NCBI GenBank assembly: GCA_965221695.1
Contig: OZ244905.1
Location: forward strand, 2,464,001-2,528,000
Source: Gammaproteobacteria bacterium
GTDB taxonomy: Bacteria; Pseudomonadota; Gammaproteobacteria; Eutrophobiales; Eutrophobiaceae
Direction of reading: 5' to 3'
Length of the DNA: 64,000 nucleotides
Below: the continuation of a report on this DNA, generated by a model with database tools
DNA letters: not shown here

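Follow-up and report, generated by a model that had tools for sequence, protein, structure and literature searches.

Conservation of the gene set around an exported CpcT-fold protein

An exported two-domain protein of the CpcT fold, encoded in the window at 6532-7515 (-), is the marker of a set of genes found repeatedly in Gammaproteobacteria, Bacteroidota and Acidobacteriota. This set comprises a cyclic amidohydrolase, either of the AllB type, as in the window, or of the PuuE type, an amidase of the CN-hydrolase or isochorismatase type, an alkene reductase, an ALDH and a family III CoA-transferase, and it holds one of two mutually exclusive branched-dicarboxylate modules. Often, VOC proteins, DUF1838 and HyuAB also belong to it, as do a TBDR together with a flavin amine oxidase exported by the Tat route and a methyltransferase accompanied by a DUF3598-like barrel.

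Neighbours were counted within 10 kb on either side of the CpcT-like gene in 78 distant loci (the syntenic relatives G008 and G022 excluded), which are not independent, as by record title they include 10 Pseudohongiella and 10 Pseudomonadales MAGs with the LeuC-type module in all 20, and in which ORF calling at high GC gave some spurious frames. The most common neighbours are CoA-transferase (48 loci), LeuC and alkene reductase (39 each), ALDH (35) and LeuD (33), followed by the HMG-CoA-lyase-like HMGL (30) and PuuE-like proteins (28). Less common are HapK-like proteins (23), SDR (22), DUF1838 (21), CN-hydrolase and isochorismatase-type amidase (20 each), TBDR (16), amine oxidase (15), bicupin (14) and HyuA (7). 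Since the CpeT family is rare, being found in 4 of 301 genomes sampled evenly across the class, with G000 counted, the association of these neighbours with the CpcT-like gene does not reflect a common genomic background. In loci of the Alteromonadales type, the genes form a single co-directional run in the order HapK-SDR-PuuE-CitE-MaoC-ACAD-CoAT-CoAT-CpcT-(TBDR-amine oxidase).

The preliminary description had treated the genes of the window as one island for the scavenging and catabolism of bilins or tetrapyrroles, and the co-occurrence check bore out their linkage: in other orders and phyla, genes from the left and the right half of the window alike lie close to the CpcT-like gene. This co-localisation speaks against the reading that the cluster has no single function and is a row of several unrelated catabolic operons within a flexible part of the genome, as do the mutually exclusive displacement of the alternative modules and the natural gene fusions that join CpcT and VOC domains. 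Such a patchwork would agree with the many switches of gene orientation along the cluster, with a low-GC strain-specific insert holding a TA pair and an FGE-sulfatase, with the numerous HyuAB paralogues in the genome, and with S15 peptidase, TBDR2, TRAP, CMD and CoA ligase, which are not retained next to the CpcT-like gene beyond the genus (78 loci, 10 kb on either side). Taken as a whole, it is highly improbable and is largely refuted for the core genes, but it could hold for these five. Conversely, the cluster genes very probably constitute one linked system.

Regarding the annotation of the window, the + strand ORF 39149-39955 was rejected as a gene in favour of a - strand GntR gene, and a promoter and terminator scan of 1-20000 gave results near shuffle expectation. 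No cluster enzyme scored above any NCBIfam equivalog cut-off, only subfamily or domain models being passed by LeuC, LeuD and HMGL; the names curcumin reductase, allantoinase, caprolactamase and succinate-glutarate CoA-transferase were not adopted, as the respective scores lay below the cut-offs. Sequence searches of the PDB yielded nothing beyond distant relatives of a generic kind, and in some cases no relative at all, for amine oxidase, FAD oxidase, Amidohydro_2, PuuE-like protein, VOC376, ACAD and CoA-transferase.

Architecture and relatives of the CpcT-like protein

The CpcT-like protein matches PF06206 over residues 36-210 with 110.4 bits (cut-off 21), and a six-frame search of the genome with the same family gave 112 bits. 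Its structural model aligns to CpcT (4o4o_A) with a Z of 22.1 and an rmsd of 2.5 over 185 aligned residues in VIA-align, and Foldseek matched it to 4o4s_A, a structure containing phycocyanobilin, with an E of 6.8e-12 and a TMt of 0.78. The N-domain reaches Z values of 22, 17.6 and 16.5 for proteins of the T-type lyase fold as opposed to at most 10 for other calycins, so that the bilin-lyase fold supposed in the preliminary description is confirmed as T-type, while bilin binding is predicted at most. A profile alignment to 4o4o (E 1.3e-16) revealed the common positions W13, F18, N20, Q23, H33, Y65-R66-x-R68, C116, C137 and D163, which reportedly line the bilin pocket (Zhou et al. 2014). In alignment A1, the motifs of the CpcT family, among them the Cys pair, Y-R-x-R and the Asp, are conserved to 90% or more or are invariant.

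In common with CpcT/CpeT (4o4o/4o4s; phage CpeT 5hi8), the protein belongs to PF06206, adopts a calyx beta-barrel and carries an N-terminal W..F.N..Q, Y-R-x-R, P-G-C, a second Cys and a conserved Asp. On the other hand, CpcT is cytoplasmic whereas the 6532 family is exported, a signal peptide or lipobox being present in 45/45 aligned members. Moreover, 6532 differs from CpcT/CpeT by a sequence identity of 22%, by an extra C-terminal barrel without a Pfam family, and by its host, which is devoid of phycobiliprotein and bilin synthesis genes and surrounds it with catabolic genes. The C-domain gave no Pfam match even at E<=5 and no usable match in an Atlas search; its structural matches, the TbpB and secretin barrels, reach a Z of only about 5 in VIA-align, within the range of chance resemblance. 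Judged by sequence, it appears to be new in the sense of lacking a Pfam family, a statement that does not extend to its fold.

Conservation of the T-type fold and motifs would be in keeping with a genuine lyase by which the bacterium attaches a bilin to one of its own periplasmic or surface proteins, the cluster then being biosynthetic or sensing. However, a whole-genome search found none of PF00502, PF05996 and PF01126 in the 96.85%-complete genome, and the lack of any phycobiliprotein, reaction centre, bilin reductase or heme oxygenase found in it leaves a biosynthetic lyase role without a target. In addition, the conserved neighbours are hydrolytic or catabolic enzymes and transporters, and such a lyase is exceedingly improbable.

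The plant DUF1001 proteins CRUMPLED LEAF (CRL) and rice SSG7 (6lix) share the CpcT fold with 6532 (Z 17.6) and, according to excerpts of PMC11606413, likewise have a task other than the assembly of phycobilisomes, which they perform in an envelope or intermembrane compartment. Unlike 6532, they are membrane-anchored, function in plastid division and protein import, and are not linked to a metabolic gene cluster in these excerpts, which mention "four residues required for PCB binding" but do not tie phycocyanobilin binding to the phenotype. Members of the fold with non-bilin roles imply that the fold is no guarantee of a bilin ligand. They favour the alternative that the same conserved system acts on a non-tetrapyrrole N-heterocycle, for instance a hydantoin, a hydroxypyridine or piperidinedione, or a natural product that contains a lactam or imide, with the CpcT-like barrel as a mere periplasmic binding module for a hydrophobic N-heterocyclic ligand. 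The wide range of ligands bound by calycins, with nitrobindin, FABP and a haemophore among the structural matches, points in the same direction, as does the distribution of the domain within the genus: the full-length protein is present in only 3 of 23 genomes, while 9 keep an orthologue that consists of the C-domain only, the spacing of the cluster genes being retained in at least 5 of the latter (G020, G018, G007, G002 and G004). The CpcT domain is thus dispensable within the genus. Opposed to this alternative is the specific grouping of the N-domain with the T-type lyases, whose motifs it has kept.

The architecture of the family is further diversified by gene fusions. VOC is joined to CpeT at L024:11017-12663, and P0300 combines CpeT, C-domain and VOC, though the VOC families fused to CpeT differ from the exported VOC of the window; the VOC-like protein encoded at 7500-7988 has no signal peptide. 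Two CpeT stretches occur in six proteins, with the C-domain between them in five (P0273, P0335, P0343, P0367 and P0370) and ahead of the main stretch in P0347.

Alternative modules for branched dicarboxylates

Among the 78 loci, LeuC occurs in 39 and the ACAD/MaoC/CitE set in 15, and HMGL in 30 as against CitE in 15, with no locus holding both members of either pair. HMGL joins the LeuCD paralogue in 28 of the 39 LeuC loci, and neither module lies within 10 kb in 24 of the 78. The ring-opening enzymes exclude each other as well, the PuuE-like type being found in 28 loci, the AllB-like type in 4 and both in none. These replacements, LeuCD/HMGL versus methylsuccinate-type module and AllB versus PuuE, constitute non-orthologous displacement.

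LeuCD of the cluster has the same two-subunit architecture as isopropylmalate isomerase, and both LeuC and LeuD exceed the cut-offs of NCBIfam subfamily models. In contrast to the leucine enzyme, it is a second copy, its LeuC remains below the cut-off of the leuC equivalog TIGR00170 (543.2 versus 560.25), and it lies beside a CoA-transferase rather than leuA or leuB, neither of which is adjacent to it in the window. A housekeeping role in leucine synthesis was rejected, given the other LeuCD encoded at genome positions 313567-315620, with 47-49% identity to that of the cluster. Small hydratases of the aconitase family include citraconate, maleate and dimethylmaleate hydratases, and LeuCD-type enzymes hydrate citraconate.

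The module that takes the place of LeuCD comprises the same families as the itaconate/methylsuccinate cluster (Ict, Ich, Ccl and methylsuccinyl-CoA dehydrogenase), a pathway described in excerpts of PMC12290011 as consisting of CoA-transferase, ACAD, hydratase and citramalyl-CoA lyase. The complete set of CoA-transferase, ACAD, MaoC and CitE is situated beside the CpcT-like gene in 15 of the 78 loci, whereas the window and 39 of the loci feature the LeuCD paralogue instead; in the window, only the CoA-transferase of this set is present, homologues of MaoC, CitE and ACAD being encoded elsewhere in the genome. No C-C lyase, SDR, HapK or PuuE gene was found in the cluster of the window, nor in the syntenic regions of G008 and G022, and without a C-C lyase of its own the final step in the window's host must be encoded elsewhere.

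According to a further reading, the core does no more than degrade branched C5-dicarboxylates, either free (citraconate, itaconate, mesaconate or methylsuccinate) or as amides, with the periplasmic proteins, including the CpcT-like one, serving uptake or detoxification of such electrophiles. This would be consistent with the family-level match to the itaconate/methylsuccinate cluster, with the best NCBIfam model of the CitE-like neighbour, the itaconate lyase RipC_Ccl (237 bits, cut-off 375), and with the hydration of citraconate by LeuCD-type enzymes. Yet free dicarboxylates would require neither a TBDR nor cyclic amidohydrolases and amidases of two kinds each, and no HyuAB, flavin amine oxidase or ALDH either, all of which recur. 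Amidohydrolases, amidases and periplasmic proteins always accompany the CpcT-like set, while they are lacking in the itaconate cluster as portrayed in the excerpts of PMC12290011. Moreover, the MmgE/PrpD isomerase typical of the itaconate cluster of saprophytes is absent among the conserved neighbour families scanned, and overall this reading is improbable.

Ring-opening enzymes, oxidases and uptake

The AllB-type enzyme encoded at 37598-39061 (+) has allantoinase as its best NCBIfam model (245 bits, cut-off 357.85), with hydantoin-5-propionate amidohydrolase and dihydropyrimidinase as further nearest models. All of these, as well as the ErtD and D-hydantoinase models, remain below cut-off, and the enzyme is assignable to the cyclic amidohydrolase superfamily only. 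Its PuuE-like counterpart matches PuuE (3cl6, E 1e-28) and PgdA (3qbu, E 2e-18) in the PDB, and PuuE/PgdA-like proteins can work as cyclic imidases, as stated in excerpts of PMC9304392. The HyuAB pair contains all three HyuA Pfam domains and Hydantoinase_B and thus shares the domains of the hydantoinase/oxoprolinase/caprolactamase family, but scores far below the caprolactamase equivalogs CapA and CapB (525 and 181 bits, cut-offs 1000); pairs of the window type accompany the CpcT-like gene in just 6-7 of the 78 loci.

An order of enzyme types that the cluster could support is found in the nicotinate catabolism of Aspergillus nidulans (hxn: HxnT, HxnW, HxnM and HxnN), in which, per excerpts of PMC9304392, alkene reductase, SDR, cyclic imidase and amidase act in succession. 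In contrast to the cluster, the hxn pathway belongs to a eukaryote, leads from a six-membered ring to alpha-hydroxyglutarate, employs an alkene reductase of the OYE instead of the MDR type and, in these excerpts, features no LeuCD, CoA-dependent cleavage, TBDR or CpcT-like protein. This precedent on a pyridine ring adds to the case for a non-tetrapyrrole N-heterocycle, together with the nearest models of the AllB-type enzyme, the activity of HyuAB relatives on lactams and hydantoins, and the resemblance of the FAD oxidase to D-2-hydroxyacid dehydrogenases among its PDB relatives. On the other hand, both alternative modules, be it a LeuCD-type hydratase for 2-alkyl-maleates along with an enzyme resembling citramalyl/HMG-CoA lyase or the methylsuccinate set, are of the methyl-branched C4-dicarboxylate type, which a methyl-substituted five-membered imide fits better than the products of pyridine or hydantoin would, as judged from excerpts of PMC12290011. 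On balance, we regard a non-tetrapyrrole substrate as possible, if somewhat doubtful.

The protein encoded at 12812-13315 (+) had been described as CpcS-like, which holds for the barrel but not for the sequence family. Its model is a 10-stranded FABP/calycin-like barrel that matches CpeS 4tq2 with a TMq of 0.67, while a Pfam scan for membership of the S-type lyases CpcS/CpeS returned DUF3598_N only (22.9 bits, cut-off 22). Since BFA1 (TMq 0.71), DUF3598 2o62 and nitrobindin match it as well as CpeS or better, the fold is not specific to CpcS/CpeS.

FRAP and NPNL are motifs of TonB-dependent heme receptors, and their absence from all 23 cluster TBDR sequences is only weakly informative for bilins and was not counted against their uptake. 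None of the known catabolic families for bilins, heme or chlorophyll was found in the cluster, and the NCBIfam model of bilirubin reductase matched merely the FAD-binding motif of the amine oxidase (25 bits, cut-off 750).

A candidate route from N-heterocycles to central metabolism

Tentatively, we consider the window to hold a conserved, so far undescribed catabolic system in a version that is expanded and specific to the genus, a view that offers the best explanation of the whole. In this system, a scarce or bulky N-heterocycle would pass the outer membrane via the TBDR and would be bound in the periplasm by the CpcT-like protein and processed by the exported oxidase and VOC enzymes, prior to import by MFS or TRAP transporters. 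Reduction or oxidation of its rings would give cyclic imides or lactams, which the cyclic amidohydrolase or the ATP-dependent HyuAB may open, the amide nitrogen being removed by the amidases. The resulting alkyl-maleate would be hydrated by LeuCD, while in other taxa an alkyl-succinate would be dehydrogenated and then hydrated. Subsequently, CoA transfer may activate the product for cleavage to central metabolites. The general logic, from imide or lactam to branched dicarboxylate, is reasonably likely.

The likeliest substrate class, proposed here with some reserve, would be tetrapyrrole-derived, namely linear tetrapyrroles (phycobilins, phyllobilins or biliverdin-type) or their oxidised mono- and dipyrrole fragments, the methyl-alkyl-maleimides; this predicted assignment draws solely on fold, homology and pathway logic. 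A widespread bacterial pathway mineralising linear tetrapyrroles, be they phycobilins from phycobiliproteins, chlorophyll-derived phyllobilins, biliverdin-type pigments or photo-oxidation products, is a more ambitious proposal and, in our estimate, a rather unlikely one. Under it, the pigment would be caught in the periplasm by the exported homologue of T-type lyases, which might even work in reverse and so detach it from cysteinyl peptides. The methine bridges of the pigment would be cleaved by oxidases and VOC enzymes to yield methyl-alkyl-maleimides, which imidases and amidases would open, and the dialkyl-maleates or reduced succinates would be burnt via the LeuCD/HMGL-type or the methylsuccinate-type module.

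Significance of the gene set

In bacteria, the opening of heme to bilins and the reduction of bilins are known. To our knowledge, and in the literature searched, there is no gene-level route by which pyrrole rings from bilins or from chlorophyll breakdown products reach central metabolism; for such a route, the cluster provides a concrete cross-phylum candidate gene set. As several cultured strains carry it, the question is directly testable; these carriers include Paraglaciecola mesophila KMM 241, P. polaris LMG 21857, Thalassotalea piscium NK451B, T. algicola M1531, Exilibacterium tricleocarpae R142, gamma proteobacterium NOR5-3, Halioglobus maricola and Oceanicoccus sagamiensis. Whatever N-heterocycle proves to be the substrate, a new branch within the CpcT family whose members are exported and carry a new C-terminal domain, the natural CpcT-VOC fusions and the clean displacement of LeuCD/HMGL versus methylsuccinate-type modules and of AllB versus PuuE will stand. 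In addition, DUF1838, DUF4437, DUF3598_N, DUF1330 and HapK-like proteins gain a pathway context. The environmental origin of methylsuccinate has long been unclear, according to excerpts of PMC12290011. If true, the tetrapyrrole pathway would point to a way in which methylsuccinate-type acids arise aerobically in the environment, and it would explain the fate of much tetrapyrrole carbon and nitrogen in sea and soil.

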